From: Chiloscyllium plagiosum
Lineage: Eukaryota
Length of the DNA: 47,164 bases
Assembly: GCF_004010195.1 (NCBI RefSeq)
Contig: NC_057757.1
Span: forward strand, 3,572,197 to 3,619,360
Reading direction: 5' to 3'
Shown here: positions 5,703-40,522 of the stretch, in pieces
How the letters are laid out: each line of letters starts with the position of its first letter
Position numbering within the stretch: position 1 is the stretch's first letter
Translations under genes and position numbers: made by a program
Notes under the pieces: model-generated
What the model was told of the DNA's origin: nothing
The model's input: only the letters and a program-made list of their open reading frames with translations
Database searches by the model: none

Positions 5703-6600
5703 TCATTTCTTTTTCTTTATAATTGCACAAGCGATTAGTGGATTCCTGACAATATTCTGCAATTCCTCTCTAAATTTGCTTTGCGTTATGGCATAGATAA
5801 ACGTGTTGGTGCATGCACTGAATAGCTGTAACATATTACCGATTTCTCGAAAAATAAATTGTGGATCACTGAAATCTGTGATTTGATAATCATTTGTAAA
5901 TCGTTCATAAAGGAAGTAGATAAGGAACGACAGCCATAAAAGAATGAAACTGCCGGATACAGCAAATAGCAGAATGATAGATTTTTTCCGGCTCTCCATT
6001 TCCGGGTCAGCCTTATTCTCTTCATTGAGCTGGGATCGGAGTCTTCTGCGGGCCTTATTGACAACAAGAATGTTTCTGACAGTCAGAGCATTGAGCAGAA
6101 GAATCAGAAAGAATGGAAAACATGGCGTTAAAATATATTCAAACCATTCAAATGTTGTCCACAAAAGGGAAGTGTGACGGATTTTCTTCAACCTGCAATA
6201 CCATGGTATATTATTACTTATGTACATGGGTTCATGTAGAAGGTACCAGGGGATATTCTTTATACATCCCAATGAGCAAACTGTTCCGATTACCACAGCA
6301 GACATTCTATCAGTGCAATATTTCACTTTGAATTTCTGGCAACAAATAGCAACATGGTGAATGCAACAGTTAAACAAACAGAAGTATCTCTGGCCGCGTA
6401 AATTAAAGCAATGGTGAGACTGCAGATGGGAGTAATCGATAGGACGGAACCCGGAAAATAAATGCCAGGAATACGGTTTAGAAGTACAGCGGTAATGATA
6501 ACCAGGAGGTCTGTTACTGCCATGGATACCAGGTACCTTGTGATACATCTTGATAGTCCGCATTTTCCTCGGGACAGAATTGCAATAGCCAGTAAATTAA
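5703..6600 (-). pseudogene. GPR139/142-like GPCR gene 1, exon 2, frameshifted in the TM3 DRY region
   Basis: Acceptor TTTGAACAG|TT at 6600. One frame reads VNLLAIAILSRGKCGLSRCITRYLVSMAVTD...TVAFT, then shifts at 6355/6356 into VAICCQKFK...CTNTFIYAITQSKFREEL (stop at 5703). The FDR codons are missing (about 10 nt). Confidence 0.88.
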
Positions 6601-7913
6601 CTGTTCAAACAAAACAAAATAAGCTGTGTCGGCTAAGAGTGGAGAATTAATTCCCAACGAAATCATTATGCTTATGACATGCTTTGCAAAGTTTGGAGTT
6701 ATGATAGTTGAAGTAAGCAAATATATTTTAGCATCTAAAGATAAGGTGGAATAAATGAGAACTTGAAAATATATTGATTACTGTATTATCATTATAATAA
6801 TAAAAATACTTGGAATCTATTTTGAGAACAGGCCCAATATTAATACCTGTGTACAATTTAAATGACTGAAAACAATCCACTGGACAAGTGACGCAACAAA
6901 GCCGGAACTGATCTGATCAGAAAATTTGAAGAGGACATGGATAATATTTGAATGAAAAATGGCAGTACCTACCAATTGCAATTCCAGCACCAGACTACGT
7001 AAGTAAATTTCAAGTTGACACAACAGCTTTTATGATTCTAAATTGCATGCAAACCCAAAGATATTACTGCATCTTGTTTAAACTTAAACAATGTATATTA
7101 ATTCAAAGCAATATCTCAACAACTGCTTGAAAATTAATGATGCAACTGTCAGAGTTTGGCTTGGAATTCTTAAACAAACATTTCAGTGATTAAAACACTC
7201 TTATTTTTATGTGAAAGGTATTACATCCAGGCTCTATTTTGTCTCAGGCACGCTGTAGCACAATTTCAAAGAGATGAGTCCATGCTGGTATGTCTCTATC
7301 AGAGGAGATGAGAGGAAACAAAAATACACTCAGAGCGTAGGTGGCAAGTGGAATTTACTACTTAACGTTAGTAGATCCAGAAGCCTTCATAACATTTTGG
7401 AAGTATATAGATGTGCACTTGCGAAGCCAATGCATCCACGGTTATGGTGCAAATGCTGGAACATGGGATTAGGAAAGTGGGGTTGTGTTTGGGAACAGCA
7501 CAGATGCTTTGGCTCAAAGCACTCTTTTCTGAGTAGTTGATGTCTCCAACACTATGTTCAGTCTTTATGGCGATAAACAATTCCTGATCACATCCACTTC
7601 CCAAAATAAATGTGGTAAGTGCAGACCCCGGTTTTCGGGTCTTGTTATGCACTGATTATTTACCATTTTTATCAGGGCAGTTTAATGGCCATTCTTTATT
7701 TGCAATGCTTCCCTAAAAGTCACAAGAATGTTGCAAAATGTTATAATGAGCACCTATTTAACTTTTAGAATTTTCCCTGTACATTTCATATTGAAAGGAG
7801 CATCGATACGTCAGTATTACAATCAAGACTGGAGCAAACGCAAAGAAATATCAGGCATGTATGTCTTCTTCGTTTTGTGATTTATACCATCTCACAGTAT
7901 GGTTTGGGATGTG

Positions 7914-8270
7914 ATGGTAATACCGTGATAATATTTCCAGAAAAAAGGTAAAATCAAAATAGCCCCACAAGGAAGAAGGTGGGGCTCAACAGCGAGAGAT
8001 GACTCGCGGTGGTATAACCTGAGCATCACATCACCTCAGGGGAGGGGATAACTGAGAACTGTTAGCTCTGTTGGAGAGTTGTATGATTTGCCGTGCAAGA
8101 TTCCGTTGAAAATATGGGTTTAATTCCTGCACCAACTGAAGTTTCTGTGACGGGTCTGCCTTTTCAAAATTGTCCCTTACCCGGTATATGATGACCCTCA
8201 GATGAAACACACCCCGTAATTTGGCTGTCTCTCTAATGAGAGATTGACTATGGTGACATAACCATTGTAA
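7914..8270 (+). mobile_element. Old tRNA-SINE-like repeat with a 5' extension
   Basis: A-box-like TAGCTCTGTTGG and B-box-like GGGTTTAATTCC. A related copy lies inverted at about 10200-10510. Confidence 0.5.
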
Positions 8271-8373
8271 TACCAATGCTCTTCACGTCAGTGTGTGGAA
8301 TGGCCTTGCCTGAATAAACATCGTTTCTCTATTATACAAACCTGTAAAATGCTCGTCAGAGTTAACTCTTTGC

Positions 8374-8676
8374 TAGGAGAGAGTGATGACTGCGGATGCT
8401 GGAGATCAGAGCTGAAAATGTGTTGCTGGAAAAGTGCAGCAGGTCAGGCAGCATCCAAGGAGCAGGAGAATCGACGTTTCGGGCATGAGTTCTCTCTCGT
8501 TGTTGAGAGAGCAGCATCTTCTTCCTGTGGGGCTATTACGATTTTACCTTTCTCCAGGAAATATTATCGTGGTATTACCATTCCTGAAGAAGGGCTCATG
8601 CCCAAAACGTCGATTCTCCTACTCCTTGGATGCTGCCTGACCTGCTGTGCTTTTCCAGCAACACATTTTGAGCTCG
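8374..8676. mobile_element. Non-autonomous palindromic Penelope-like element with internal cargo
   Basis: Inverted arms at about 8374-8489 and 8581-8675. 11-bp TSD TAACTCTTTGC (8363-8373 and 8677-8687). Decayed hammerhead core CTGAAGA-AGGGC TCAT GCCC-AAAACGTC. Confidence 0.8.
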
Positions 8677-9418
8677 TAACTCTTTGCACAATCTCTAGAC
8701 AGGTTAAACAAGGAATTGAATGATTCAGTGATAACGCGATATCCAGTCAGGGATACATTTGATTTTAAAGCTTTCATTGTTCAAACTGATTTGGAACAAG
8801 TTATTGTCATTTATGCAGGATGAACGAGCAGTAACAGCATGATGGGAGGTAACAACTGGATTGGAAAATGGTTCAGAGGCAAAGATCAGAATTGCAGGTC
8901 TATAGAGAAAATGATCACTGAGATCTGTGGTGAAACAGTGTCATTCACCAGACAGAGGGCCAGAGTTGGGAGGCACAGCTGGACAGAAGCTGAGCTGCTC
9001 CCCTGAGTGAAGGAACATGGAGTGGAGCAGTACAATCCCGCTGTTTGCCGCCACCTTCTCCAAGACATTTACAGATAGAAGGTCAATGCTGCTCAGACCG
9101 GGAACAACGAAGTATTGCAAGGAGAGTAAGTCGATAACCAAGTGGCTTATTGGAGATAATTAACACAGTTTCGAAATATTCTTGGGACATTGTTTCACAG
9201 TACCATTTCTATACTGAGTGCCACTACGAATATAGTTCAGAACGCAACTCTGAGTTAAAGAAAAACATTTAAAACATTATTCAGCTTGGAACATCGATCC
9301 AAATTGTTCTGAAAATTCAGCTGGAAATTCATTGTGACAACTATCATCAACAGCTATTTACCACGATAATCCACTTAACTAGTGTTTTTCAAGATGCTTC
9401 ACATTTGGAGGACTTTAC

Positions 9419-9488
9419 CTGGGACTGCGATACCTGCAAGGGCCGTGTAGTAAATTGCATAGATCAGGCCTCTTGGCGGAAGATGCAT
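9419..9488 (-). pseudogene. GPR139/142-like GPCR gene 1, exon 1 (MHLPPRGLIYAIYYTALAGIAVP)
   Basis: IYYxxLAxxxVP TM1 motif ending in a phase-1 donor CAG|GTAAAG, as in the paralogues. TATAAA at 9550-9555 on the minus strand. Splices in frame to 6600. Confidence 0.8.
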
Positions 9489-10194
9489 TATTTCCTCGGA
9501 GCACTGATGTCTGTTTGTATCCAACATGCATTCTTTCCATCTCTCCATGTTTATAGCTGATGCTGAATCATTGGAGATGCAATTAGAGAGCAGCAGGAGG
9601 TATCTTTCAATTCACCGGTTAGGTTGCAACAAAGTCTGTAGTCATTAAGCAAATGAAATGTTGCATTTAATCAAACTTTTCTTTTCCATACTGTCAAATG
9701 AAACAGAATTCGTTCTACAAATTGTTGCTCCAAATATTTCTATCCACGTGCTGGATAACCAAGTAATTTTTCACTTTGCTTTAAATTATCCAACTCCATT
9801 CTGTGAATGATCAGTGAGTCGATTTTCAGCAGACTTCATAGAGGCGATAACCATAATGTTTCAGCTCACCAGCTTACCGCTTTCAATTCACTACTGGCGA
9901 AAAAATTGCCAGTCAGCTTCAGCTACTCTCCTTTAACTGATGCCCCTTGTGAAGAAGTGCTTGCTTTAAAATGCAATGTGCTACTGAACTGGATGTCACT
10001 TTTTCGCATAATCATTCAGGACTTGTTATACCTGCATGACATTGATGTAACAAACCGGGAACTTCAAATAACATTTCACAGGTTGATGTTTCATCGAATC
10101 AATGTTTATTTATTTAAGGGCTTTCCGCATCCACACACTGACCTAAAGAGAGACAATATTACAAAGATAAAGTCGCCACATTCTGCACTGTAAA

Positions 10195-10510
10195 TAGAGA
10201 GAGAGAGAGAGAGAGAGAGAGAGCAGCGGTGGTGAGTTTATTCTGAGAGTCACCACACTCTACACACTCTAGCCGAGGGACGACATTGAGAAGGGAGAGC
10301 CATCCTGATAATCTCACCTAGTGGAGGAAATAACCTCATTCTACACGATAAATCAGCCAAATAACCAAGGAAACTAACAACCACTCCCCTCGACTGATAA
10401 ATGATCACCGTACACCACTTACCTCTCTCTGGTCAGAGATCAATTTTGTACTCCTGTGGGACTGTAGTGACTTTACCTTTCCATCAATATTATCATGGTC
10501 TCACCATTAA
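10195..10510 (-). mobile_element. Second copy of the old SINE-like repeat with an (AG)n end
   Basis: Its reverse complement matches 7914-8270 in several blocks. Confidence 0.45.
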
Positions 10511-11669: not shown

Positions 11670-11950
11670 TCAATATGGTGGTGTTTGCAATCCTGTCACG
11701 CAGAAAATGTGGACTATCAAGCTATCTAACCAGGTATGTGGTTTCCATAGCAGTACATTTGGTGACTATCATAACCTTGCTTCCAAACCGCATTCCTTGG
11801 ATGTCCATTCCATTTATTTTCCTGTGGATTCTTCCAGTTTCAATACTGCTTCAATAAAATGGATATTGAACTAATTTGGTGGTTGAAGACAGACTACCGT
11901 TGAATGGGTGTTTTTCAGCCCCCAGACCTTTGACCACTTTTGTTTCAACT
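11670..11950 (+). pseudogene. GPR139/142-like GPCR pseudogene fragment (exon 2, TM1-TM3), head-to-head with gene 1
   Basis: Acceptor TTTCAACAG|TC, then VNMVVFAILSRRKCGLSSYLTRYVVSIA...NRIP, a stop at 11855, and a TFDHFVS remnant of TFDRFVA. Interrupted by a repeat arm, followed by a gap. Confidence 0.78.
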
Positions 11951-12065
11951 AGGAGAAAGTGAGGACTGCAGATGCTGGAGATCAGAGCTGAAAAATGTGT
12001 TGCTGGAAAAGCGCAGCAGATCAGGCAGCATCCTAGGAGCAGGAGAATCGACGTTTCGGGCATAA
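11950..12065. mobile_element. Single arm of the palindromic Penelope-like element
   Basis: TAGGAGAAAGTGAGGACTGCAGATGCTGG...CGACGTTTCGGGCATAAG, same family as 8374. Confidence 0.8.
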
Positions 12066-14022
12066 GAGATCAAAACTGTATCTCCTAGTGTTTTGAAAAT
12101 ATNNNNNNNNNNNNNNNNNNNNNNNNNNNNNNNNNNNNNNNNNNNNNNNNNNNNNNNNNNNNNNNNNNNNNNNNNNNNNNNNNNNNNNNNNNNNNNNNNN
12201 NNNNNNNNNNNNNNNNNNNNNNNNNNNNNNNNNNNNNNNNNNNNNNNNNNNNNNNNNNNNNNNNNNNNNNNNNNNNNNNNNNNNNNNNNNNNNNNNNNNN
12301 NNNNNNNNNNNNNNNNNNNNNNNNNNNNNNNNNNNNNNNNNNNNNNNNNNNNNNNNNNNNNNNNNNNNNNNNNNNNNNNNNNNNNNNNNNNNNNNNNNNN
12401 NNNNNNNNNNNNNNNNNNNNNNNNNNNNNNNNNNNNNNNNNNNNNNNNNNNNNNNNNNNNNNNNNNNNNNNNNNNNNNNNNNNNNNNNNNNNNNNNNNNN
12501 NNNNNNNNNNNNNNNNNNNNNNNNNNNNNNNNNNNNNNNNNNNNNNNNNNNNNNNNNNNNNNNNNNNNNNNNNNNNNNNNNNNNNNNNNNNNNNNNNNNN
12601 NNGCAATGCTTATCTTCAGTGACTGGTGTACAAGGGCCCCCAGGCCTCATACATCTCCCTTTCTGAATCGATCACCTTTCAGATTAGGATCTGCCTTCCT
12701 ATGTTTGCTATTAAATTGGATTATTTCCAAAGCATGTCCAGAAGCTTTTACAGTCAGTTCCCCGTAAGCTTCCTCCTATCCTGTTTTCCACCCCCACCTC
12801 ATTATCAATCCCTTTGTTCTCCGAAATCCAAATTGCTCCCATTCCTCAGGAACACTAAGGGTGGCGAAGTGCTGAGGATCGTGTTGAAATGTAAGACTGA
12901 GGCAGATGATTTCAGCGAGTGGAAAACAAGTCTCAAGGTGGCCAATGTTTCCCTCCTGTTCCCATTTTGTATTGTCACGGACTGAATTGCACAAAGGTTT
13001 GAAATGTTACTCCGAAATTGGCCTCCTTAGACGTAGTTGCCCTTGAGGTATTGAGACAGACACATAAACAGGCAGGGAATAGGGGGATCCACACTGTGCA
13101 CAGGCAAATGGGATCAGTTGAGAATGGCATTGTGGTTGGCACAGACACTGCGGGCCGAATGGCCTGTTCCTGTGCCGTGTTGTTCTCTGCTCCGTGTTTA
13201 AGTGTCTCACTGGGCCGTCCCAGAATGCAGTTAATGGTGAACTCCGTTGTTGTCGCTTCGGGTTGAAGTCACATGAGGGCGAAGTATTGGTCAGGTCATT
13301 GGCGTTACCTCGGTCCCCATCTCTGTTCTCCTTGTTAGCGGGATCGTTTACCTCAGCAGGAGAGGTCAGCTCATTCCATCCCAGGTTAGATTACGAAAAT
13401 AGAAACTGCGTTCTTGTGGAAGGTGCAGCATTTTGATCCACTCTCTTGTTCCAACTCACCCCAACACATGACCCCTCTGTGGCAGCCATCTTGTTTGAGG
13501 GAGATAATTAAATAAAATAACTTAATCCAATCAACACCCAGACTGGACTGAATTGAAAGAGTCACTTTTTGTGAAGGGATGATGATGAATTGAAAGGGGG
13601 GAGTGAGGGATGCTGGAAATCTGAAATAGCAATGTCAAATTCGAGGAAACGTTCAGGCAGTTCCCTGTGATAACTGAAAGATTTCACACCTTAGCTGTTT
13701 GGCCTTTCATCTGAGCTGGGGAAGAGTTAGGGATGGTTTAGGTTTCAAAAAAAGGAGTGGATGTGATCAGGACAAAAGGATAACTGAGACTGGGTCAAGG
13801 AAGGAGAGTCGGCCGACGGAAGAGGGTAGCTTCCAAGGTCTCAAGCAATGGGGCAACAGAACGACAAAGAAAAAACAGAGAGAATGGCAAAATGCCCCCA
13901 GAATAGGTGTATAATTGTGGGAAAGGCAACAAAAGAAGAAAAATGGAAATGTGCACAAGGAACATACAAACTGGGCTCACAACACGAACATCAATGAACT
14001 CAGTGTTAACTCCAGAGCACTA

Positions 14023-15559: not shown

Positions 15560-16990
15560 CCGGCGCCCAGTTATAGGAAGGATCTCATTAAGCTGGAGAG
15601 GGTTGGGAAGAGATTTACCAGGATGTTGCCAGAAATGGAAGGTTTGAGTTACAAAGAAATGTCTAGGATCCTTTTCTGCTGGAGGTTGAGAGGCGAGCTG
15701 GTAGTAGTTTATAAAATAACAAGAGCTATGGATAGAGTTAATGGTAGTTGTCCTCTCCCTAGGATGGGGGATTTCAAGAGAATGGAGTTGTGGTTCTGTT
15801 TGCCGAGCTGGGAATTTGTGTTGCAGATCTTTCGTCCCCTGTCTAGGTGACATCCTCAGTGCTTGGGAGCCTCCTGTGAAGCGCTTCTGTGATCTTTCCT
15901 CCGGCATTTATAGTGATTTGTATCTGCCGCTTCCGGCTGTCAGTTCCAGCTGTCCACTGCAGTGGTCGGTATATTGGGTCCAGGTCGATGTGCTTATTGA
16001 TTGAATCTGTGGATGAATGCCATACCTTTAGGAATTCCCTGGCTGTTCTCTGTTTGGCTTATCCTATAGTAGTAGTGTTGTCCCAGTTGAACTCATGTTG
16101 CTTGTCATCTGAGTGTGTGGCTACTAAGGATAGCTGGTCATGTCGTTTCGTGGCNNNNNNNNNNNNNNNNNNNNNNNNNNNNNNNNNNNNNNNNNNNNNN
16201 NNNNNNNNNNNNNNNNNNNNNNNNNNNNNNNNNNNNNNNNNNNNNNNNNNNNNNNNNNNNNNNNNNNNNNNNNNNNNNNNNNNNNNNNNNNNNNNNNNNN
16301 NNNNNNNNNNNNNNNNNNNNNNNNNNNNNNNNNNNNNNNNNNNNNNNNNNNNNNNNNNNNNNNNNNNNNNNNNNNNNNNNNNNNNNNNNNNNNNNNNNNN
16401 NNNNNNNNNNNNNNNNNNNNNNNNNNNNNNNNNNNNNNNNNNNNNNNNNNNNNNNNNNNNNNNNNNNNNNNNNNNNNNNNNNNNNNNNNNNNNNNNNNNN
16501 NNNNNNNNNNNNNNNNNNNNNNNNNNNNNNNNNNNNNNNNNNNNNNNNNNNNNNNNNNNNNNNNNNNNNNNNNNNNNNNNNNNNNNNNNNGTGTCATCTA
16601 CATATCTGACCCAGAGTTTGGGTTGAGTTTGCGGTAAGACTGTTTGTTCTAATGTTTGCATTACCGCTTCTGCTATGAGTGCAGAGATGGGTGAGCCCAT
16701 GGGTGTGCCGTTGATTTGTTCATATATTTGGTTGTTGAATGTGAAGTGTGTTGTGAGGCACAGGTCCAGTAGTTTGAGTATGCCGTCTTTGTTGATAGGT
16801 TCAACGTCCTGTTGTCTGTTCTGTATGTCCAGCAGGTTGGCTATTGTTTCTCTGGCTAGGGTTTTGTCGATAGAGGTGAACATGGGGTATATGCGTTTAA
16901 GGTGAGAGGAGAGAGATTAAAAAAAAGACATAAGGAGCAAATGTTTTGCACAAACTGCGGTTGCATGTGACATGAACCTCCAGACTTCAG
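15560..16990 (+). mobile_element. CR1 3' fragment split by a Penelope insertion
   Basis: CR1 3' sequence stops at about 15785 and resumes at about 16884 (GGGTATATGCGTTTAAGGTGAGAGG). Confidence 0.65.
15786..16883 (-). mobile_element. Penelope-like retroelement 1 (RT, GIY-YIG C-terminus, terminal repeat with hammerhead motif); spans a gap
   Basis: FTSID...YEQINGTPMGSPIS...LWVRYVDD; HDQLSLVATHSDDKQHEFNWD; GCA-CUGAGGA-stem II-GAAA-GAUC-UGC at 15822-15862 on the minus strand. Confidence 0.92.
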
Positions 16991-19689: not shown

Positions 19690-20520
19690 AATTAGGATGC
19701 TTTCTATGGTGAACCGATAAAAATTAGTGGGACTCGATATAGACCTGCTGAACTTCCTTAGCCTCTTGAGGAAATAGAGTTGTTGTTGAGCTTTCTTGAG
19801 CGTTACGTTGACCTGGGTGGACCAGGACGTTGGTGATTGTCTCTCCAAGGAACTTGACGCTGTCCACCATCTCCCCCTCAATCCCTGTGGGTGTCTGTGT
19901 GTATGTGCGTGTGTGTGAATGTGTCTGTGTGTGAATGTGTCTGTATGTGAATGTGTGTGTGCGTGCGAGTTTGTGTGCGTGCGAATGTGTGTGCATGGCT
20001 GTGTGTGTGTATGTGAGTGCGAGAGTGTAGGTATGACTGTGTGGGTGTCTCTGTGTGTGTGTGAATGTGNNNNNNNNNNNNNNNNNNNNNNNNNNNNNNN
20101 NNNNNNNNNNNNNNNNNNNNNNNNNNNNNNNNNNNNNNNNNNNNNNNNNNNNNNNNNNNNNNNNNNNNNNNNNNNNNNNNNNNNNNNNNNNNNNNNNNNN
20201 NNNNNNNNNNNNNNNNNNNNNNNNNNNNNNNNNNNNNNNNNNNNNNNNNNNNNNNNNNNNTGTGCGTGAATGTGTGTGTATGGCTGTGTGTGAATGTGTC
20301 TGCGTGTGAGAGAGAGTGTGTGTGTGTGAATGTGTCTGCACGTTGGGTGGGGGAGCTGGGTTGTGGGGATAGGCACTGAGACCTCGGTCTCAGAGTTTAG
20401 AGATGGGTTTGTTTGGAGTTATGGTGCTGAAAGTGGAACTGTCATTGATAAGTAGGAACTTGATGTAAGTATCCCTGTTATTCAGACATTCCAGGGCTGA
20501 GTGTAGGATCATTAGCTGCA
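19690..20520 (-). mobile_element. Rex1/Babar-like LINE RT C-terminal fragment interrupted by a (CA/TG)-rich tract and a gap
   Basis: VDSVKFLG.TI, WSTQVNVTLKKAQQQLYFLKRLRKF, NFYRFTIESIL. Confidence 0.65.
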
Positions 20521-21856: not shown

Positions 21857-22752
21857 TCATCGAATTGCTTTGACCAACTTTATAAAGGGACACATTATTC
21901 CATTCTTCATCTCTTCTCTGAATTTCCTCTGGGTAACTGCATAAATAAAGGTGTTTGTGCAGCAACTCAGGAGCTGCAGCATGAAGCCAATCTCTCTTAC
22001 AAATGTTGGCAGAGGAACTGGATATCCCAAGTAATCGAATCGTTTCAATATGGAATAAGCAATGAACACCACCCACAACATGATGAAATTGCCAGATATA
22101 ATAAATAACATAATCATGGATTTCCTCCGACTCCCCATCTCTGGGTCACTGACACTGTCCCCAGACGTCTGAGCCCGGAGTCTCCTGCGAGCTCTGTTGG
22201 CTAATATAATGTTTCTGACTGTCAAAGTGTTTAACAGGAGAATCAAAATAAATGGAATGAACGGCGTTATGATGTAATGCATTAATTCAACAATGGCCCA
22301 GACAATTGAAGTAAATACATTTGGATTAACTCTACAAAACCATGGGCTATTCGAAAGCCAATATATATTGTAATACATGAAATACCAGAAAATATTCTTC
22401 AGACAACTCAGCACAGTCACTGTTCCTAAAACCACACCCGCTGTTTTCTTAGTGCAATATTTACTTCTCAGCTTTTGGCAACAGATGGCCACAAACCGAT
22501 CAAAGGTGAACGTGACCGTGAACCAGACAGAGCAGTCTGTGGCAGCAAAAAGCAGAACTGCGTGAATGTTGCACAAGGGGAGAAAATACACAAAATGAAA
22601 CTCATCCCGATACGTAATAGGAATTTGTCGTAGTATCAGATCGAAGATAATGACCAGTAGATCCGCCGTTGCCATAGCCACTAGATATTGAGTGACACAT
22701 TTGGAAAGACCACACTTCCCCCGAACCAGGATCGTAATTGCAATCACATTAA
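21857..22752 (-). CDS. GPR139/142-like class A GPCR gene 2, exon 2 (spliced product 330 aa, intact)
   Basis: Acceptor TTCTTTCCAG|TT. RGKCGLS in ICL1, MATADLL in TM2, TM3 Cys and TFDRFVAICC, ECL2 PWFC, TPFIPF in TM5, CTNTFIY in TM7, helix 8 KFREE. No stops. Confidence 0.93.
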
Positions 22753-23483: not shown

Positions 23484-23580
23484 CCATGACACCAAACGCA
23501 GCTAAGACCGGGTAGTAAATCTTCTGTATGTCATTAATCGCCCACAGAATCTTCAGCTTGACCAAAAAACCAAGAGACAT
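23484..23580 (-). CDS. GPCR gene 2, exon 1 (MSLGFLVKLKILWAINDIQKIYYPVLAAFGVM)
   Basis: Phase-1 donor G|GTAAGT. 97 + 896 nt = 993 nt, in frame. The ATG is conserved in gene 3. Confidence 0.88.
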
Positions 23581-23668
23581 GATGTCCCTTTGGAAAGTAA
23601 TGGACGTTTCGAAGGTGGCAGTTAAAGTTTGGTCTGTTCTCTGTTTGAGAGATGGAGAGAACATCTCT

Positions 23669-23822
23669 TATTTATAGCAGGGAGAATTCATCAGATCAGA
23701 AAATCAGCTCCCAAGTTGCTGGAGCCTAATTACAGCCAGCAAACAAAGTAATGAAATGAACAACTATTTTATCAAGGGAATTTATACATGAACAGTGCAG
23801 GTCCTGGTCAGTAAACCCTATC
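23669..23822 (-). promoter_or_regulatory. Proximal promoter of gene 2
   Basis: TATAAATA at 23669-23676 and TAATTA at 23727-23732. The block is conserved with 40611-40760. Confidence 0.7.
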
Positions 23823-27450: not shown

Positions 27451-27870
27451 TGTTGTGGAAATTAAATTGACTCGACTCAACTGTTAGCAAAAGCTAAGAA
27501 AGGAGCTTTATTTAAATTGTGCAGAATTTGACCCAATACATTTAGCCAGATGTCTCAATATAAGGGATACCTGAGCATAGTTCAGAAACTTGCCTTATAC
27601 TGTTTCTTAGCACGCTGTGAAGGGCAAAGACTGGGCAACCTCAAGTTGTTAATCTGTCATAACCTGGTCTTGGACATAACAGTTCTTCAGCTTTTGCCGA
27701 GTTCAACTGTCGCAAGGTCAAGTTAATGTTTACAAAATTCAAACAGAGACAAGCTGGCTGCAGACCTCATCAAAGTATTGTTTACAAAGCTCAGCACAGC
27801 ATGACATTTTAGAAACGCATTCTCTTTCAAATTTCACAGTAAATGTAAAATTTCTTAACTTTCCATTACA
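27451..27870 (-). repeat. 3' LTR of ERV copy B (420 bp)
   Basis: TGTAATGG...CCACAACA on the minus strand, directly after the PPT AAAAAGGGGGAAAA. Confidence 0.92.
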
Positions 27871-27949
27871 TTTTCCCCCTTTTTGCCATTTTATGACAAC
27901 AAGGACGACTACAGCAACAAAAACAAAAAAGAAACAGAGCCAGATAACT

Positions 27950-30088
27950 AAAAATCGGCAATCTGCATTGTAAGGAGCACTTGAAATGGTCCCAGCCACC
28001 TCTTCACCTTCCAGTTTTTCCTCCTGAAGTCTTTCACCACTGCGCAGTCTCCAGATTTTCGATTGTGCTGCTTCCCTCCTGCTGGTTGGGGTAGTGCTGC
28101 TTTCACTTGATTCTGTATTTCTGACAAAAGTGTAGAGAGTTTTATACAGTAACACAACATCTCATCCTCACAATGGCCTGTTATCTGTCTTACCTTAGGT
28201 CCTTGGCTAACTCCTGTATTGGGCGGTCTACCAAACAAAATCTCAAACGGGCTCTTTCTCTCCTCCTAGACAATACCTTTTCCCTTCGCTGGGCGTCAGT
28301 TCAATAAAATCCATCTGTAAATGTTCAAAGGGCTTTGGGGTTGGGGTGTGCTGTCTGACTCATCTGTATTATGGCACAGATAACACAACGCTCACAATAT
28401 TTCTGGGAGTAATCAGTAAATCCCTTAGTGTGCCAGTGTGCCGAAATACTGTCTCATGGTCCTTATCGTGTGTCAGTTTGGCATAGAATGGAAGTAATGA
28501 TGGTGGTAGACAGGGTTTACAATTGGGGCCACACCATACTCCTTCCCTCACACTGCATCCTGCTTTCGTCAACTCATACTTTTCTTCCGGTGTGGCCTGT
28601 GACTGTAATTCCTGTACGTCTGCTGTTGGGGTACAAATTCTTGTCATACCCACGTCAATCTGCTCACTTGGTGGCTGCTCGCCTGCTGTCATTGCTGCTG
28701 AGTCTGCCCTCGCATTGCCTTGGGAAATAAAAATCATTATTTTTGTGTCGGGCTTCACATTTACACGCAGCGATTGATTTAGGCAATAGGACGGCATCCA
28801 GGAGGTCAGAAATCAGGCCACGGTGTGTGAGGGGCTTTCCGGTGGAGATCGAGAAGCCCCTGTGTTTCCACAGGGTTCCAAAATCACGTACAACCCCGAA
28901 TGCATATCTGCTGTCGATGTAAATATTCACTGTCTTTCCCTCAGCCAATTTACAGGACTCAGTGAAGGCAATCAGCTCCGCTGCTTGCGCTGACAGATGA
29001 GAAGGGAGTGATCGCACTTTGGCGACTTCATGGGTAGTCACTACAGCATTCCCAACACAGTTCTGGCCTTTCTCCTTGCTCCTGAATGCTCACCCATCCA
29101 CAAAAAACTCCATATCCGGATTCTGAAGTGGTGAATCCTGCTAGGTCTAGGGCTGCAAATTTCATTAGTTACAGCGACACAATCATGTGGCTCTCCGTCT
29201 CCTTCTGTCGGGAGAAGGCTAGCAGGGTTAAGGACGTTACATCGCTTTATTGTAATGTTAGGCATCTCCAATAACACGGTATTGTGTCTTAACCAAGGTG
29301 CTGCCGACATGTGTGCTGTCTTTTGCTCGGGAAGCAGTAAGGATACAGCAGAAGTGCTGATCCCATGGTTAAAACAACAGTCTCCAGACTCCTGCGTAGA
29401 GCCTCATTATGTATGGTGAGGGACTCACAGTAACCATGACAAAGTCGCGTGAAGGTATATGATTTCCCTTTGAATGAAAAAGTGAACCAGAATTGACTAT
29501 CTGGGTGCACCAGTAACACTAAAGAAGGCAATTGCTAAATCCACAACAGAGAACCATTTACTGTCCAGTGGAATTTAAGCCAATATAGTACAGGGGTTTG
29601 GAACATATCGGGCGTGCGGGACAACAGCGCTATTGACTGCCAGCAGGTCTTGAACAAACCTCCATTCCTCTGGTTCACCGGGAATGTTTGCCTTTTTGAC
29701 CGGAAAAATGGGGGTTCTCACCAGTGAGTTCTCACAGGGGATTATCACTCCAGCCTTTAGGAGGGATTCAAAGACTGGAGTAATCCCTTCTGTAGCCTTG
29801 GGTTTTAATAGGTATTGTGCTCTGCAAGGATGCGGTAAATCTCTCTCGTAGCACGACTCCTGATGCACCCATTGAGTTCAGGAACCTTCCACTCATCTTT
29901 ATTGGCGTTGACTCCCTGAACTGGATTGGTTTAAGGACTGAATATGTTGCCCCTATATCTACCAAAAAGGTAACTGGTGTACCTTCCACATATAGCATAG
30001 AGGTAGGCATTGACTTATACGCATCATTGTTATATTGGACATACTGTCCACACTTTGCAATCTCAGCGCTCAATATAGAGGTTGGCAT
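27950..30088 (-). pseudogene. pol: ERV B pol remnant (protease, RT N-half, RNase H, partial integrase)
   Basis: FLVDIGATYSVL; RTPIFPVKK, WRFVQDL.AVN, YTFTRL.HGY.ES; SAQAAELIA; WLGPFQVLLT. Several large deletions. Confidence 0.9.
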
Positions 30089-30094
30089 GTCTCA

Positions 30095-31754
30095 GTGCCT
30101 CTAAGGTTAGTAGAAGAGATTAGCATAAGCGAGTCTTCGTTGCCAAGCATAAAGGAAAGAGGCTTACCTGTACCTTGTGGGCTGCCCACCTCCACCTCAG
30201 CCTTCCCCTGTCAGACCCCCTGTCGCTCAGCCTCCAGAGCCGACTGAGCCTGTCTGTGTGGGCACTGTCTCGCCCAGTGGTCCATTGCTCCACAAACAAA
30301 GCACCTGCCAGATCTACCTCTGCCTGCGCCTCTTCTGCAACCTCCACCTCTACCTCTCTCTCTTCCTGCAGCACCTCCCTCCAATGGCTGGGTGACCATT
30401 TGCATCATAGTAAGCTAAGCTTTATGTGCTTGCTGTGGCATCTTTAGTTTCTGCTTATCCTTCTCTTGGGTAAGCACTTTTTCAGCATGTATCACATGCT
30501 GTTCTATCAAATTCAGCTTTCCCATGTCCCAGGTAATACATGTGTCTTTTACCTTGTTCGCTATTTCGTCCTTCATTCCATTGATGTAGCTGTTCCTCAG
30601 GTGTGCCTCATACGGTGTGATTTCTGGTGCTGTTATGTCGTTGGGTGGTCTCAGTCCATTATGGGCATTATGGACTTCAGTGAGGCACATAAGGTACTGG
30701 GACACTGTCTCACCTTCCCATTGTTTACACATTGCTAGCTTGGTCATGTCCATCCGCACTGGGAATGCCTCCCTACAGGTGGTTGCCAGCACTGCAACAA
30801 AAGCATTAAAGTCTCCATTCTGCTCTGCTTGCGGGTTGGCTACTCTGGCATGGATGTTTGAGCTGGCCAGGTATACTTGATTTTGGTGACATTGGCACCC
30901 AGCTTTCGTCCCAGGAGATGTCTCATCTCATGTGACGTGGGATGGAACTCAGTACAGAAGTTTGTCACTTCTTCAGCAAACTTATTCCCTCCAACCTCGA
31001 GTGGGTCAAGCAACTGCCCATAGGCACTTTCCAAATCCTTTATGGTCCATGGTCGGTAGACCAGCACTGGGCACCCTTGTGGGCCTGCAGCTTCAACCAT
31101 TGGGGCTTGCAGAGCTACCTGGTTAAATGATTGTATGCCAGACCCCTCACCGTCTGACTCATCATCCGCCGTGGGGAGATCGCGAGCAGGCCCTGGATGC
31201 CTTTCCGTATTCGAGTGGCCGTTGTCATTTTGGGATTCTTACTTCAATTGGTTGCGGGTGCGATTTGTTATCCAGCAGACCCTGAGGCAGAGGCCGCTGG
31301 CATGGAACCTTCTCCAGGTGGATCTCGTAGGGAGGCTGTAGGTCTCGGAGGTCAGGATCCGGAACAGACTTAAGACACTGTACAGCTTCATTAGGTTGTT
31401 TTCCTCATGCGTCTGCATGTGCGCTGGTGTTTGTACGTGTATTTGATCTATCCTTTATTTGAGATTTCCTTTCTCTGATATCAGCCTCAACCTTCCACAT
31501 TTTATAAGCACTCCAATTCACAGGCTCTATTTTTCCCTTCCTTTCTCCTTCTCTCTCTCCTCCAACCTCGACATTAATTTTTCCAACTGCCTTTTACTAA
31601 AACTTGCCCCTTCTGGAAAACCACATTCCTTGATCCATAATTCTAACTGCTTTACAGACTCTGGGCCGTACTTATGTAGCATGTATTGTATTTTTGGTTG
31701 GCCATTCCAAGTCCTATGTGGATTCTTCTTTTGCTTGTTCTTGCTGGAGCCCAT
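30095..31754 (-). pseudogene. gag: ERV B gag remnant (MA, CA, single CCHC NC)
   Basis: MGSSKNKQKK start (Gly2 plus basic patch), LVYRPW capsid start, CKQWEGETVSQYL (MHR-like), CFVCGAMDHWARQC zinc knuckle after RGG repeats. Confidence 0.9.
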
Positions 31755-32291
31755 TTTTAGTGTAACTGGAAAAGTGTTCAGCTCTCTCTCTCTCTCTCTC
31801 TCTCTCTCACAGCGCCGTTATCTTTTTCCCTTTGACTTGTTTTTAACTTCCGGAGGCCCGCCTCTCGCATTGGGCGCGTCCACCTCCATGCCGTGGTTTT
31901 CATAAACCAAGAAACCACGTACCCAGTACGTCTTTAGTGAGTCCAACTCAGCCAGTGGTGGTTCCAAGTCTAAAACCACCCTTAAACTTGCTGTCTCTCA
32001 AACACTCTAGCAATCCTTTCCCTTGAGTTTTGCTCAAATACCGTGTGAGAGTTTACTTAAACCTTTTTCTGATTCATTTATTCTCTTAGAATGAGTCTCA
32101 ATATAGGAATATTTAAGCCAATTCTCTTACCCTGACCCTATTTGATTTGAACCCCAGTGCTAGGGCGATCCACAGATTCCTAGCCCTCCCACTCAAAAGA
32201 GACAATTTAGCGCTCGAGATGAAGTGAAAGACCTTCAAGGCGCTGACTCCTGCGCTTCCTGGGAATCTTCAGAATCTTACCCAGTCATGAG

Positions 32292-32309: not shown

Positions 32310-32316
32310 AGTTTAC

Positions 32317-32678
32317 TGTTGACGAAATTAAATCGACTCGACTCAACTGCTGGCAAGAGCAAAGAAAGGAGCTTCATTTAAATGCTGCAGACTTTGACCC
32401 AATACATTCAGCCAGATGCCTCAATGTAAAGGGTACCTGAGCATAGTTCAGGGCAAAGACTGGGAAAACTCAAGTTGTTATTCTCTCATCCCCTGGTCTT
32501 TCGCTGAGTTAGACTGTCGCAAGGTCATGTTGAATGTTTACAAAATTCAAACAGAGACAAGCTGGCTGCAAACCTCATCAAAGTATTGTTTACAAAGCTC
32601 AGCACAGCATTAAATTTTAGAAACGCATTCTCTTTCAAATTTCACAGTAAATGTAAAATTTCTTAATTTTCCATTACA
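32317..32678 (-). repeat. 5' LTR of ERV copy B (362 bp)
   Basis: Aligns with the 3' LTR except for two internal deletions. Confidence 0.92.
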
Positions 32679-34660: not shown

Positions 34661-36939
34661 TGTCAGGGGGTTCTGTACACTCTGAGAGCTGGCTCTGAGG
34701 AAGGGTCAGGTTACCGTGCACCTGGAAATAAAGGGTGACTTGGTGATGGGATACTGTCCTGGGGGGATTTAATTCACTGTGGACCTGGGTTTGAATTCCG
34801 CCTCAGTAAATGGTAGAATGGGAATTCAATAAGAATCCATTGGAAAACCTTGTCTGGTTCACTAACTTTCTGGAAGGAACCTGCCCTCCTTACCTGGTCT
34901 GACCAACATGTGGCCCCAGCCCCATAGCAATGTGGACCCTTGGGGGCAATTAGGGACAGGCAAGAAATGACACCCTCATCCCGGAAATGATGTCGTTCAA
35001 AATGAAGTCCGAGGGCACCAGTAAGCCCGAGGGCCAGAAGAGTTTAGAGCCTCCTCCTAAGAAACAGTACAGCCCTGCCGAGCAGGCTCAGATCATTGTA
35101 ACCCCAAATACATCCCAAGGGAAATGCAGAGGAAGTGACACAGGGTTGCACGCTGACAGACCTGAGCAGCAACATCGACGTTTACACACACCGACCCTCC
35201 CCCAACCCTGGAGTCATATCTAGTGTCAGGCAATTCCCAGGCTCCAAAGTAACTCAGCTCTCCTTCTGTTGTCCCAATGTAGCTCTCCATAAGCAGCAGA
35301 CATCCCAATGTTGACCTGTTACTGGGATCACAGGATCTGGGCCACTCCTTCATTTGGAAGTGTGTCTTCCACTGAGGTTGTAAAAATTATCATCATTCCC
35401 AGTCTTCCTGTTGCCTCGGTTCTTTCCATTAGGTCCTTTCCCATTTGTAAAGATTCAACACGTCCCCTTCAGAGGTGAGCAGAGACCAGGGGAATTTAAA
35501 ACACTGAGGCAGTAACAAGTATCAATTGGTTCATTTTGCTCAGAAAATCACAAAGAGACAATATAATAAAGAGCAGACAATTTTAAAAGGGTTACAGGGA
35601 AATGCGGCCTGAGCAGTTTGTACATTTGTTATTAAAGGTGGAAGAGGGAGTGCAGCAAATGGACACCAGGCTGATATCAGGGAGGGCAGGGCTGCTGTAT
35701 GAGGACAAATTGGTTCAACTGGACCTGTATCCAACAGCATTTAGAAGGATGGGAGGCAGAAAGTCATTCATGAACTTATTGGGAACTCAGGGCTTTATTA
35801 CCAGGGTTATGTGAAAAACAAGGAGGTTATGTTCAATGTGCATTGGACACAGCGTCTCCTGGCACAGGGAGTAATGTCTGCGTTTTGATGACACCCTTTA
35901 GAAAGATGTGAAGACATTAGAGAGAACGATGAACAGATACATAAGTTTTGCTCGACCATGCAGAACCTCAGTTAGGTGAATAGGATTGACAGATGGGCGT
36001 GACCCTTCAAGCAGAATGAAAAGGTTCATGGAAGGTTTACTTAGGTTCTCAAGTCATGAGGCATCTGGACAGAGATGATATTGAAAGAATCCTGCTCCCA
36101 TTGATGGCAGGATCACAAACACACCAACACAGAATGGAAATCATGGGGGATTGAAGCAATGGAGACATGAGAAAAGTGATCGTGCATCTAAGTACTTGGA
36201 TCAGAATGCACTGCCTCAGATAATGGTGGAGGGAATTTCACTGAGGTATTTGGGAGAGAATTGGGTAGAGAACTGACACAATGAAGTGGTATTAAGCGAA
36301 TTGTTCTTTCTCAGAGCCAGCACAGACGCAACATCTGAATGGCCTCTTTCTGTGCTGTAACAATTCAGTGATCCTTGTTATGGACCAGACCATACCCTGT
36401 ATAAACAAATTTCGGAGACAGCCTGGATCCTAATTTTTCTCTTTCTTAAAGTGTAAGGTGCTGCATTCCAGATGGGATTCACTTGGTCAAACATCCAAGC
36501 TTTAAGTAAAACACATTCTATTCTTATATTACAGCTAAAATACAAACAAAAACAGAAGAAGTTTCATAACCTTAACACAAGGAAAAATCTCAACAAACTA
36601 ATACATTAATTCACTACTTATCATCAAATGTTTCAATATAGCAAAATCCCATAAACCCACCCTGGCACAAGCAAATTCAGTGCACAGAGATTTCCCTCAC
36701 TTGCTGAGTCCCCCAGTCCAGGAGAAGCAACACCAACAGAATGAGTCTGGCAGCAGAGAGAGAAGTCAAGCTTTTTTTCCAGCAGCAGAGAGAGAGCTGT
36801 ACGTAGCGGCTTCAAATTCACAAAATTCAGCTTTAACTTGTGAGAACAAAAAAATGAAATCTCTGGGTTTGTGTGAGCCCGACTCTATCCACTCATCCTT
36901 CGTTTGTCTACATTTAAGCCTGTGTCTACGTAAACATTT

Positions 36940-37965
36940 ACTTTACCATTCGAATCCCATTTTCCAGCACTTCCAGCCTTTTGTGCTTTGATATTATAAG
37001 GGCATACCAAACACTTCTTCAATATTATCTGGGTTTCTGTGTCCAGAGAACATACAGGCAGTGAGTTTCAGATTCCCACCAGCCACTGGATCAAAAGTGT
37101 TTACTCACATTTCCTGTAAACCTTCTGCTCATTAACTTAAATTATTGATCTATGCATCAAGCAGAATTTTTTTTTCTGTCTCTGCTATTGTAGCCCCTTA
37201 CTATTTGACACATATCAATGATATCAATCTCCCCTGCTCTAAGCAAATCAACACAGGTCTGTCCAATGAAATGAAACTCTCCAGCCCAGGCAACATCCCG
37301 GTAAATCCCCTCTCCAGCTTCTCCCGTACTATCACCTCCCTTCCAAAATGTGGATTCCAGAACTGCACATTGTACATGAGCTAAGATTGAAGCAGTGTTT
37401 AAGGCAGTTCCAGCATCACCTCCCTGCAATTAAACCCTAAGTCTGGACTAGTAAAAGCAAGTATCCCAAATGCCTTCTCAAACACTTTATCCACCTGACC
37501 TGATACTTTAAGGAACTAAGGATCCTCCACATCAATGGCATGCTGATTTTCTGTGCTTCCCAGAGTCTGGTACTGCGCTTGTGATTTGATATAAAGTGGG
37601 TGTGCTGTGGTATTATTTGTCTTATTGAAGTGGGTCATGAGACTGAAAATGTTGGGAATCGTTCACCTTAATTCTGTGGTGTTCCCATCCATCTGTTCAT
37701 CATGCATTCCCCTCACCTTGTTTGCCCTTCCAAGTACATCACATCACATTGATCCCAACTGAGTTCCACTTGACACGGTCTACCCTCCTGAACAGCGTTC
37801 TACATCCTCCTGTAATGTAAAACTATCCTCCACACTATTCACCACCCCACCAATTCTTGTCTCATCTGCAAACTTACTGATCCACCTTCTTACAATAATA
37901 TTTAAATCATTTATATAAAACAGGAGCAGTGAGGACCCCAACACTGATCCCAATGAGGGTTCCAG
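36940..37965 (-). mobile_element. Old CR1 RT/3' fragments
   Basis: GSVLG..L.L.YINDL...ISKFADET and a degraded 3' end. Confidence 0.75.
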
Positions 37966-38059
37966 CTCCAAATTGTTCGAAAAAAATCATTGAACAGATA
38001 ATCTGACAGAATGCGAAACAAAATGCTGCATTACTGTTAAATGTTAGCTTGATGTTTGA

Positions 38060-38952
38060 TCAAATTACTTGGACCAACTTTGTGAAGGGATACAACATTC
38101 CATCTTTCAACTCTTCTCTAAATTTCCTCTGGGTAACTGCATAAATAAAGGTGTTTGTGCAGCAACTCAGGAGCTGCAGCATGAAGCCAATCTCTCTTAC
38201 AAATGTTGGCAGAGGAACTGGATATCCCAAGTAATCGAATCGTTTCAATATGGAATAAGCAATGAACACCACCCACAACATGATGAAATTGCCAGATATA
38301 ATAAATAACATAATCATGGATTTCCTCCGACTCCCCATCTCTGGGTCACTGGCACTTTCCCCAGTCACCTGAGCCCGGAGTCTCCTGCGAGCTCTATTGG
38401 CTAATATAATGTTTCTGACTGTCAAAGTGTTTAACAGGAGAATCAAAATAAATGGAATGAATGGCGTTATGATGTAATGCATTAATTCAACAATGGTCCA
38501 GACAATTGAAGTAAGTACATTTTGAGGAATGTCACAAAACCATGGACTATTCGAAAGCCAATATCGATTGTAATACATGAAATACCAGAAAATATTCTTC
38601 AGACAACTCAGCACAGTCACTGTTCCTAAAACCACACCCGCTGTTTTCTTGGTGCAATGTTTACTTCTCAGCTTTTGGCAACAGATGGCCACAAACCGAT
38701 CAAAGGTGAACGTGACCGTGAACCAGACAGAACAGTCTGTGACCGCAAAAAGCAGAACAGCATGGATGTTGCACATGTGGAGAGTGTGCACAAATAGAAA
38801 CTCCCCCCGATATGTGATAGGAATTTGTCGTAGTATCAGATCGAAGATAATGACCAGTAGGTCTGCCGCTGCCATAGCCACTAGGTAATAAGTGACACAT
38901 TTGGAAAGGCCACACTTCCCCCGAACCAGGATCGTAATTGCAATCAAATTAA
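38060..38952 (-). CDS. GPR139/142-like class A GPCR gene 3, exon 2 (spliced product 329 aa, intact)
   Basis: Acceptor TTCATTCCAG|TT. Same motifs as gene 2, colinear with it at an offset of 16200 nt. No stops. Confidence 0.93.
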
Positions 38953-40138
38953 CTGGAATGAAGAGAATAAATGGGCTCATTTATTGCTCAGGCATAATGC
39001 AAAAATGTTTTTCTTGCTTTATTTACAGTGAAATGTTGAAACTAATCCTTAAAGAGTTTCCAATGTTTTTGCATCAGTCTTCAATCTTTTCACAAATTGC
39101 AGGCAAAGCTGCTTTTTAAACAGACAGCTAACTCGGAATGTAACAAGGTACAAAAGGGTCACTTCTGGTGAGAAGACAAACTACAGACTTGAGGTCTCCG
39201 AAAGAGTAATCAGTGCTGGGGATGAAAGAATCTATTGAATCATTAACAACGTCACATCACAAGCTTGAAAGAGAGAAAATTGTGTGAGAATCCAACACCA
39301 GAACAATTCAACAGCAGAATTTTAATGAACAACACTGCACAGGAGTGAACTCTGGAAACCGATCTGTGTGTGACGCAGGCTGTTCGGCCCATCCAGTCCA
39401 CACCAACCCTCCGGACAGCATTCCAGCAAGACCCACCCCTCTACGCGATACCTTTAAACCCACCCTTTCCCATGGCCAATCCACCAGACCTACACATCTT
39501 TAGACAGAGACAGGCCACTGTTGATTGAAGTCATGGGCAGATTGTACCATGAATCGGGTAAGAGCTAAGTTGTATTGTGTGGCTTAGACCTGCCTGCTTA
39601 GGGATCTTAGTAAAGTTTAACTTATTGTTTCAGTTCTTGATTGGCTCTGAGATTTCTTAATAAGTAACTAAATGAAAGGTAAATTGTGGCGAGTTTACCG
39701 ACAACACATGGATCAGGGAAACATGGTTAAAACAAAAAAAGACACTTTTCAAAAGGAATAAATGAACAAATTGGAGCCAAATTTTGCAACGAGGCAGAAA
39801 TGCTGGAAGAGAAATGAGCCATTCAAACTCTTAGATGGCTTGTTCCATTGAAGGGAGTCGTGGATAAATTGTATAAATTGCCATCAATTATTCTTTAATC
39901 CCATTCTCATCTTGCCTGAGAGGAGAAACTCTGAATGATGATTTAGTGAGAAAAAGAGAATGAATAAAAAATGGAGAAAAAGTTCGAAAGAAGCAATAGT
40001 AAGAATGAAAGACAGAAAGAAAGGTGTCAAGAGGAAAGATTACAAGAAAGAGAGAAAAGAAAGAGAGCGAGGAAGAAAGAAAGAATGAAAGAGAAAAAAG
40101 AAGGAAACAAAGAAATGATAGATAAATGCAAGTATGGA

Positions 40139-40139
<1 letters not shown>

Positions 40140-40224
<85 letters not shown>
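40140..40224. repeat. (GATA)n microsatellite in the gene 3 intron
   Basis: About 21 perfect units, next to a purine-rich tract. Confidence 0.95.
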
Positions 40225-40425
40225 GGATGGACAGGTGGACAGACGGATGGACAGCAAATCGATGAATCAACGGACTGCATTTTTGCCTGACAAATGATAT
40301 GATGATAGAAGAACAGTATTCATGCTGAAACTGAAGGAAGAATATTCTGAAAAGTGACACAAAAATTAAGATAACACGTGATTATATTGTACTTTTTAAA
40401 ACATCATCCCTCGGGTGTAACGTAC

Positions 40426-40522
40426 CTGGGACACCAACAGCAGCCAAGATCGGGTAGTAAATCCTCTGTATATCAGTGATCGCCCACAGTATCTTCAGCT
40501 TGACCATAAAACTGAGAGACAT
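40426..40522 (-). CDS. GPCR gene 3, exon 1 (MSLSFMVKLKILWAITDIQRIYYPILAAVGVP)
   Basis: ACCATG start and phase-1 donor CAG|GTACGT. 97 + 893 = 990 nt, in frame. Absent from the ORF track. Confidence 0.88.

Follow-up and report, generated by a model that had tools for sequence, protein, structure and literature searches.

We describe a large family of two-exon genes for G-protein-coupled receptors (GPCRs) of class A in cartilaginous fishes. Four of its loci, called A, B, C and D here, lie in a 47,164-nt stretch of the genome of the shark Chiloscyllium plagiosum (contig NC_057757.1, positions 3,572,197 to 3,619,360; hereafter the window), and the genome contains more than 500 loci of the family. 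The expansion is established here. A sensory role is proposed: with moderate confidence, and from what the sequences indicate, we suggest that this family, which evolves by birth and death, functions as a chemosensory repertoire that detects water-borne or surface chemicals. Peptides or small polar molecules are the probable ligands; free tryptophan or phenylalanine are improbable ones. We favor a chemosensory role because of the size of the repertoire, its turnover, the different conservation of its inner and outer faces, the diversity of its ligand pocket, and precedent in other animals.

Expansion of the family in this and other genomes

Family loci were counted with a 32-nt degenerate pattern for a motif in the first intracellular loop (ICL1). 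The genome contained 523 exact matches, scattered over many contigs, and the control contained none. The 523 loci are a floor because the pattern misses part of the intact members: it was present in 54/80 distinct intact exon-2 sequences in hand and in 13/24 of those found with distant queries. We sampled every second one of the first 100 listed matches, all on large placed contigs (unplaced contigs were left out). Of these loci, 32/50 were intact, 16/50 were broken and 2/50 fell in gaps. One of the 16 broken loci had a 284-codon frame and failed only a motif filter. By extrapolation there are about 340 intact motif-bearing genes, and perhaps 500-630 in all. Protein searches of the same genome gave at least 132 and at least 150 scored matches among thousands of candidates.

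The family extends to other cartilaginous fishes. A search of public proteins returned 2169 clusters at E <= 1e-10. Among the best 120, every named row was from a shark (2 rows were unnamed), and almost all were called 'probable G-protein coupled receptor 139'. When 50% representatives were searched with a profile and 30 of the 150 rows were looked up, skates, electric ray, stingray and chimaera joined the members. The RefSeq and UniRef models named 'probable GPR139' in sharks, skates, rays and chimaera are this family; the names are automatic and do not denote GPR139 orthologues. Other models of the family carry the automatic names 'capa receptor-like', 'vasopressin V2 receptor-like' and 'tachykinin-like peptides receptor 86C'. 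The nearest models are from Stegostoma; they are 85% identical to exon 2 of gene A and have the same N-terminus.

We found that members from one species tend to group together. A quick tree of 64 A-type sequences contained clades of 11 genes from Heptranchias (support 99), 15 from Heterodontus (99) and 7 from C. plagiosum (81), beside a few cross-species orthologue groups. An initial annotation of the window had proposed birth-and-death evolution, and the mixture of intact and broken loci in the sample, together with the species-specific clades, bears this out. With at least 523 loci the family is not small, and cross-species orthologue groups are few in this tree. In its size, its clustering, its pseudogenes and its species-specific blooms it resembles a chemoreceptor repertoire.

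The window contains four GPCR loci and no others, as judged by six-frame translation, motif search, direct reading and profile searches built from relatives. The profile searches gave E values of 1e-241, 1e-237, 1e-213 and 2e-18, the last for locus C (Table 1). Identity is 89% between genes A and B and 50% between A and D, and C resembles the D type. Of the 30 differences between A and B in exon 2, 12 are in the first and second extracellular loops (ECL1 and ECL2). A and B belong to class A (rhodopsin-like) receptors: 7tm_1 is their sole Pfam domain (74.5 bits for A and 69.6 bits for B; cut-off 30.5). The other marks of the class, namely seven helices followed by helix 8, N1.50, D2.50, the cysteine pair between C3.25 and ECL2, and the DR motif, are present as well, as judged from conserved columns and from the structure model of P0001, a relative 85% identical (predicted local distance difference test score, pLDDT, 77).

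As described initially, A and B are intact and the other two loci are defective. Relative to three intact paralogues, gene D has a single internal 10-nt deletion near 6354 that removes the FDR of the third transmembrane helix (TM3) and shifts the frame. Because the frame is open apart from this deletion, gene D is a young pseudogene or a null allele. Locus C has lost D2.50, has a stop after the fragment, and is missing the 3' four fifths of exon 2; direct reading and profile searches of the window gave no recognizable exon 1 for it. The introns of A, B and D (1473, 731 and 2818 nt) are all GT-AG and in phase 1 and follow YYxxLxxxxV(P/M), in agreement with the initial annotation, and the AG acceptor of C is at the same position as in the other loci. 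The motifs reported as common to the loci stood only in part: TFDRF is in A and B and not in D, where the deletion removes FDR, and RGKCGLS reads RRKCGLS in C. The cluster continues beyond the window. Two further family loci are within 20 kb to the right, the nearer one broken; none was found within 20 kb to the left.

Table 1. Receptor loci, promoters and other features of the window (positions are those of the window).
Feature	Positions	Strand	Remarks
Gene A exon 1, coding part	40426..40522	-	short N-terminus and first half of TM1; phase-1 GT donor; N-terminus matches RefSeq model P0001
Gene A exon 2	38060..38952	-	remainder of seven-helix receptor; spliced product 329 aa, intact
Gene B exon 1, coding part	23484..23580	-	phase-1 GT donor
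Gene B exon 2	21857..22752	-	spliced product 330 aa, intact
Gene D exon 1, coding part	9419..9488	-	phase-1 GT donor
Gene D exon 2	5703..6600	-	second subfamily; carries the 10-nt deletion
Locus C	11670..11852	+	exon 2 fragment, end of TM1 to ECL1; D-like
Gene A proximal promoter	40610..40688	-	element starts at 40688, TATA 69 nt downstream; top minus-strand matrix score in window, leave-one-out 12.1
Gene B proximal promoter	23667..23746	-	weaker element, score 10.3 (below null maximum); TATA spacing and position as in A
Gene D TATA-like box	9557-9546	-
Assembly gaps	12103-12602, 16155-16590, 20070-20260
Retrovirus-like pol remains	1-2900	+	broken
Retrovirus-like pol remains	about 27800-31900	-	broken; between A and B
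LINE remains	46173-47162	+	endonuclease and reverse transcriptase
LINE remains	41929-42300	+	endonuclease and reverse transcriptase
Minisatellites	43389-43692, 44954-45646		units of 70 nt and 33/66 nt

The first assembly gap starts 250 nt past locus C, whose stop precedes the gap. Retroelement remains occupy the spaces between the loci of the window. The two pol remains are ~84% identical over 1.1 kb and carry RNase H, an integrase core, an integrase C-terminus of the murine leukaemia virus (MLV) type and a weak protease match. One of the long interspersed nuclear element (LINE) remains has a 330-codon open frame that reaches the end of the window. The long frames on both strands of the minisatellites are repeat artefacts. 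Elsewhere in the genome, a cluster at G000:C37:14.9-16.8 Mb holds some twelve class A GPCR matches, a few of them with stops, whose frames are 480-580 aa long; this may be another expansion, smaller than the first, of a receptor of the aminergic type.

Relationship to GPR139 and GPR142

The loci had initially been called GPR139/142-like. We found that kinship with the wider GPR139/142 group holds, and that descent by duplication of GPR139 or GPR142 is not supported. Among solved structures, GPR139 was the best match by sequence (E 1.5e-7; 1.5e-13 with a profile). A fold search also placed GPR139 first, but this is weak, as GPR15, TRHR and chemokine receptors scored almost equally. Look-alike clusters in the ESM Atlas carried PF10324 and FMRFamide-receptor names, and GPR139 has been related to the FMRFamide/myosuppressin-type receptor group (in the part of PMC12208981 available here).

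The true orthologues are elsewhere in this genome and are single genes, GPR139 at G000:C21:58.73 Mb and GPR142 at G000:C24:44.31 Mb. Class C receptor matches are 60-130 kb from them (G000:C21:58.60 Mb and C24:44.25 Mb). The arrangement is like that of human GPRC5B and GPRC5C, and it is consistent with orthology.

We built a quick tree of 89 rows and a careful tree of 39 rows, and they agreed with each other. Receptors of this genome served as outgroups, with ORs (olfactory receptors) among them in the larger tree; named invertebrate peptide receptors, srw and cyclostome sequences were left out, and TAARs were not identified by name. The wider GPR139/142-related group, which includes the shark family, was separated from 15 class A and 3 OR rows with a support of 100 in the Shimodaira-Hasegawa-like approximate likelihood ratio test (SH-aLRT; 89-row tree) and, with amphioxus receptors included, from 6 other class A rows with 100/99 (39-row tree). 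GPR139 and GPR142 formed a clade (100/99) that excludes the shark family. The family instead grouped with a salamander gene, W (100/100), then with orphan gene X (91/86), then with orphan genes Y and Z (100/96), and then with the amphioxus receptors (94/90). Forcing it together with GPR139 and GPR142 alone was rejected by the approximately unbiased (AU) test (p = 0.03; the test was made after the tree was seen). On the basis of the excluding clade and the AU test, orthology to GPR139 or GPR142 is rejected. Identity to the two receptors is 22-23%. These trees place the family as a sister lineage of GPR139/142, and it probably split from them before amphioxus and vertebrates separated.

The nearest relatives of the family are X, Y, Z and W, all annotated as 'probable GPR139'. 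In C. plagiosum, X (G000:C26:36.60 Mb, L062) and Y and Z (C98156, L084, and C27:2.29 Mb, L085) are distinct from GPR139 and GPR142 and gave one match each, in contrast to the hundreds of loci of the family. Gene X was found in sharks, coelacanth, sturgeon, teleosts, amphibians and turtles, most species having about one row, and the 120 rows listed included no mammal or bird; it lacks W6.48. Gene W (P0225, P0271 and P0274, from Pleurodeles, Ambystoma and Lissotriton) is on a long branch; no other sequence from outside the chondrichthyans was found within the expanded family or immediately next to it.

The intron position is common to several of these genes. The exon-2 acceptor is at the same codon and phase in the window genes, in the GPR139 of this genome and in gene X, which confirms, for the acceptor, the earlier statement that the intron is at the GPR139-equivalent position. 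We also searched 60 fetched regions for exon 1. Fourteen were dropped with exon 2 unrecognized, 18 had no exon 1 within the stretch, and in 28 (27 family loci and gene Z) exon 1 was clear and its donor was where it is in the window genes. Thus a phase-1 intron in TM1 just before N1.50, the phase being imposed by the scan, is found in these 28 loci as well as in A, B and D.

Most of the residues that form the Trp/Phe site of GPR139 are lost. Mutagenesis indicates that the action of Trp and Phe on GPR139 needs F3.33, H5.43, W6.48 and N7.38 (part of PMC5430874), and for synthetic agonists structures point in addition to E3.32, W166 and R6.51 (part of PMC12775434). Of these seven residues, A and B retain F3.33, H5.43 and W6.48 and have L at 3.32, F at 6.51 and F at 7.38. 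Gene D retains W6.48 and N7.38, with Y at 3.33 and E at 5.43. All three have lost E3.32, W166, W170, P6.50 and R6.51. The assignments come from a low-identity alignment in which the ECL2 positions are the least certain. Among 63 rows from this genome, near-duplicates included, position 5.43 was D in 29 and H in 25, 7.38 was F in 26 and N in 24, 3.36 was R in 24 and T in 22, and 3.37 was D in 55, where GPR139 has H. Each of the pocket positions 2.61, 3.29, 3.32, 3.36, 5.43, 6.51 and 7.38 holds residues of several classes. As aligned, the pocket is rebuilt and differs between subfamilies; with the GPR139 residues lost, aromatic amino acids would therefore not be the default ligand.

Selection, promoters and a possible sensory role

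We found that the family is functional and under purifying selection, with an outer face that is looser (relaxed or diversified). The ratio of nonsynonymous to synonymous substitution rates (dN/dS), estimated from 18 non-overlapping pairs of close paralogues among 80 intact sequences, was 0.36 overall (bootstrap 0.31-0.44). It was 0.26 (0.23-0.30) in the cytoplasmic half and 0.46 (0.37-0.61) in the outer half. Values for the loops were 0.54 in ECL1, 0.73 in ECL2 and 0.63 in ECL3, so that the loop diversification noticed initially was evident here as faster change. Column entropy was 1.96 bits outside and 1.11 bits inside, and invariant or near-invariant columns are concentrated in ICL1, lower TM3, the end of TM5 and the junction of ICL3 and TM6. 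With this outer, ligand-binding side and a conserved transducer face, the family looks like a chemoreceptor repertoire.

The promoters suggest shared regulation in part of the family. The TATA promoters of the initial annotation were recovered, with TATA-like boxes at 40618 (A), 23676 (B) and 9555 (D). In 26 non-redundant promoters we found a 26-nt element with a mean score of 16.7, compared with 7.3-12.6 in ten controls; in leave-one-out scoring it exceeded the null maximum (the best of 227 intron windows) in 11/26. A TATA-like box was 63-72 nt after the start of the element in 11/17 listed promoters, and 69 nt after it in A and B. The element and its spacing are kept across subfamilies near 50% identity. 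One half of it is T-rich and forkhead/Sox-like, the other (TAATTA) is homeodomain-like; no factor is assigned.

Based on these results we suggest how the family might work. The common promoter element would switch members on in one sensory cell class, for which olfactory microvillous neurons, or chemosensory cells of taste, skin or gill, are candidates, with few genes expressed per cell. The ligands would differ from receptor to receptor and would be bound in the outer pocket, in which a new conserved D3.37 takes the place of H3.37 of GPR139. The DRF motif, the CGLS-x-C of ICL1 and the DPE...RRKS face at the ICL3-TM6 junction would couple all members to one G-protein pathway.

We also raise, more tentatively, the possibility that sharks, rays and chimaeras have in this family their main olfactory receptors. 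It would then be an independent radiation of several hundred genes that arose from the GPR139/FMRFamide-receptor group, with sparse expression in microvillous olfactory neurons not accounted for by known receptors. Cartilaginous fishes have 20-62 olfactory receptor genes each (mean 43.8), the smallest olfactory repertoire of vertebrates (part of PMC10869828). C. plagiosum itself gave 3 OR matches at E <= 1e-10, in line with the scarcity of ORs assumed initially, and 73 class C matches including fragments, 51 of them on one contig that is probably a V2R cluster. In the catshark nose, neurons form a near-continuous layer, and a probe for the V2R co-receptor marks 5.9 cells per mm, with 0.5-2.8 for other probes (part of PMC10116579). 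Many neurons may lack an assigned receptor, which would leave room for another receptor family, although the difference may reflect probe sensitivity. No RNA source was listed for 38000-40600. Four runs of unstated tissue were mapped at 85% likeness to 37700-39950, a stretch without exon 1 of gene A; the reads count neither for nor against a sensory role. The single-cell run X5 (2% read) gave 110 reads, all only partly on the stretch, of which 1 matched at 95% or better; no read of any run was wholly on gene A. Run X6 gave 0 reads, and run X7, only guessed to be RNA, gave paralogue-like pieces (e.g., 38583-38726, with 18 differences in 144).

Several observations weigh against a sensory role. 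Extracellular loops are loosely constrained in most GPCRs. In this family, dN/dS in the outer parts of the transmembrane helices (0.29) was barely above that in the inner parts (0.23), ICL3 reached 0.37-0.53, and no region exceeded 1 in the 18 pairs, which were drawn from intact genes only and so favor low values. The promoter element was undetectable in 15/26 promoters and in three close paralogues of A and B, and inspection by eye gave no clear Olf/Ebf (O/E)-type site of the kind found in OR promoters. Some copies on unplaced contigs may be haplotype duplicates. All catshark olfactory neurons are positive for TRPC2 and Go, markers of the V2R type (part of PMC10116579); these markers fit V2Rs and may be compatible with another family too. 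The top 50 nose-specific genes in the portion of PMC11979771 covered here include no GPCR of any family. Finally, birth-and-death evolution is equally typical of immune receptors.

Our results might also indicate immune or barrier surveillance, in which leukocytes, mast-like cells or somatosensory endings would detect microbial, parasite or damage peptides, as mammalian formyl-peptide receptors (FPRs) and MRGPRs do by analogy. We consider this unlikely, yet the most serious of the alternatives. The birth-and-death signature would be the same, the ancestry is among peptide receptors, and many copies are on small contigs (C44 and C46-C50) and on C37. MAS1 and its relatives are reported missing from cartilaginous fishes (PMC8455134), so that a functional stand-in is conceivable. 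However, positive selection was not detected at the region level, no ETS-type core (GGAA) was among the 30 most enriched promoter hexamers, and several hundred intact genes far exceed the sizes of the FPR or MRGPR families. It is more doubtful still that the family is a neutral bloom, in which segmental duplication multiplies the genes on small, repeat-rich chromosomes and at the ends of chromosomes, with most copies redundant and few that matter. About one third of the sampled loci are broken, copies are scattered over many contigs, and the window is full of retroelement remains, all as such a bloom would have it. Against it stand the dN/dS of 0.36 with its clear inside/outside pattern, the promoter element and spacing kept between distant subfamilies, and the expansion in every shark lineage sampled. 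Retrocopy origin is ruled out, since the intron is kept in 27/27 family loci with exon 1 found.

A role in reproductive or social signaling, with sperm, the oviducal gland or pheromone-sensing cells reading species-specific peptides, seems slightly less probable again. The species-specific blooms would suit it, and the invertebrate relatives include the sex-peptide/myoinhibitory peptide (MIP) receptor group (part of PMC12208981), but dN/dS is moderate. We give least credence, very little, to the reading that these are multiplied GPR139/142 receptors with which brain, gut or pancreas would sense L-Trp and L-Phe internally. This would explain why GPR139 is the best solved-structure match by sequence (narrowly by fold) and why F/Y3.33 and W6.48 are kept, as are H5.43 in A-type and N7.38 in D-type genes. 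However, no window gene has both H5.43 and N7.38, the other pocket residues are lost, the family is a different lineage from the true single-copy GPR139 and GPR142, and with two amino acids to sense, receptors in their hundreds would be superfluous.

Significance and comparison with known receptor families

The genes of the proposed chemosensory family are already in public annotation under a misleading automatic name. We found no paper that describes the family or its function, or that links GPR139-like genes to an expansion in cartilaginous fishes; mention in other shark genome papers or in subscription journals is possible. The family is not mentioned in the shark genome papers PMC10620051 and PMC8455134 (with supplements) or in the available parts of PMC11979771 and PMC7677710. 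In the supplements of PMC8455134, GPR142 appears a single time, within a list of orthogroups, and GPR139 is absent. That paper describes a relative paucity of GPCRs in cartilaginous fishes; the several hundred orphan GPCR genes that are intact in the genome of this one shark contradict the statement, whatever their function. Surveys of known chemoreceptor families would discard these genes by design, to judge from the part of the methods of PMC10869828 available here. The puzzle of large-nosed cartilaginous fishes, a keen nose with few receptors, becomes directly testable with existing tissue RNA-seq. If this is indeed the main olfactory family, a chemoreceptor family new for vertebrates would be added, and the repertoire of sharks would grow about tenfold. 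In addition, several distinct genes that have not been studied go under the name 'probable GPR139' in the annotation of fishes, amphibians and turtles; through those that are single-copy in bony vertebrates, a ligand and a cell type may be reached.

GPR139, a receptor of the human brain, and GPR142 (PDB 7vug and 9m42) are class A orphans that L-Trp and L-Phe activate. They share with the family the exon-2 acceptor position and phase (seen in the GPR139 of this genome), the DR motif, W6.48, an aromatic residue at 3.33 and an NxxxY without the usual proline. They differ in having one copy each, compared with hundreds, and the family has lost P6.50 and most pocket residues. In the way it would work, the family resembles ORs, TAARs, V1Rs, V2Rs, T1Rs and T2Rs, which also have clusters, pseudogenes, lineage-specific blooms, a short N-terminus and a variable outer face. 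Unlike these olfactory, vomeronasal and taste families, it lies outside the ORs in the tree, matches only 7tm_1 in Pfam (its genes are absent from the 7tm_4 and 7tm_3 match lists of this genome), and has an intron inside TM1. The closest precedents are in invertebrates. The nematode srw family (PF10324) is a birth-and-death family related to FMRFamide/myosuppressin receptors and is proposed to sense environmental peptides (part of PMC2576165). Like the shark family it expanded from this peptide-receptor group; the two expansions are independent, and the function of srw is itself a proposal. An expansion of FMRFamide-like receptors is also described in a snail (part of PMC11589774), and such mollusc expansions, too, appear to have arisen independently from the same peptide-receptor group.

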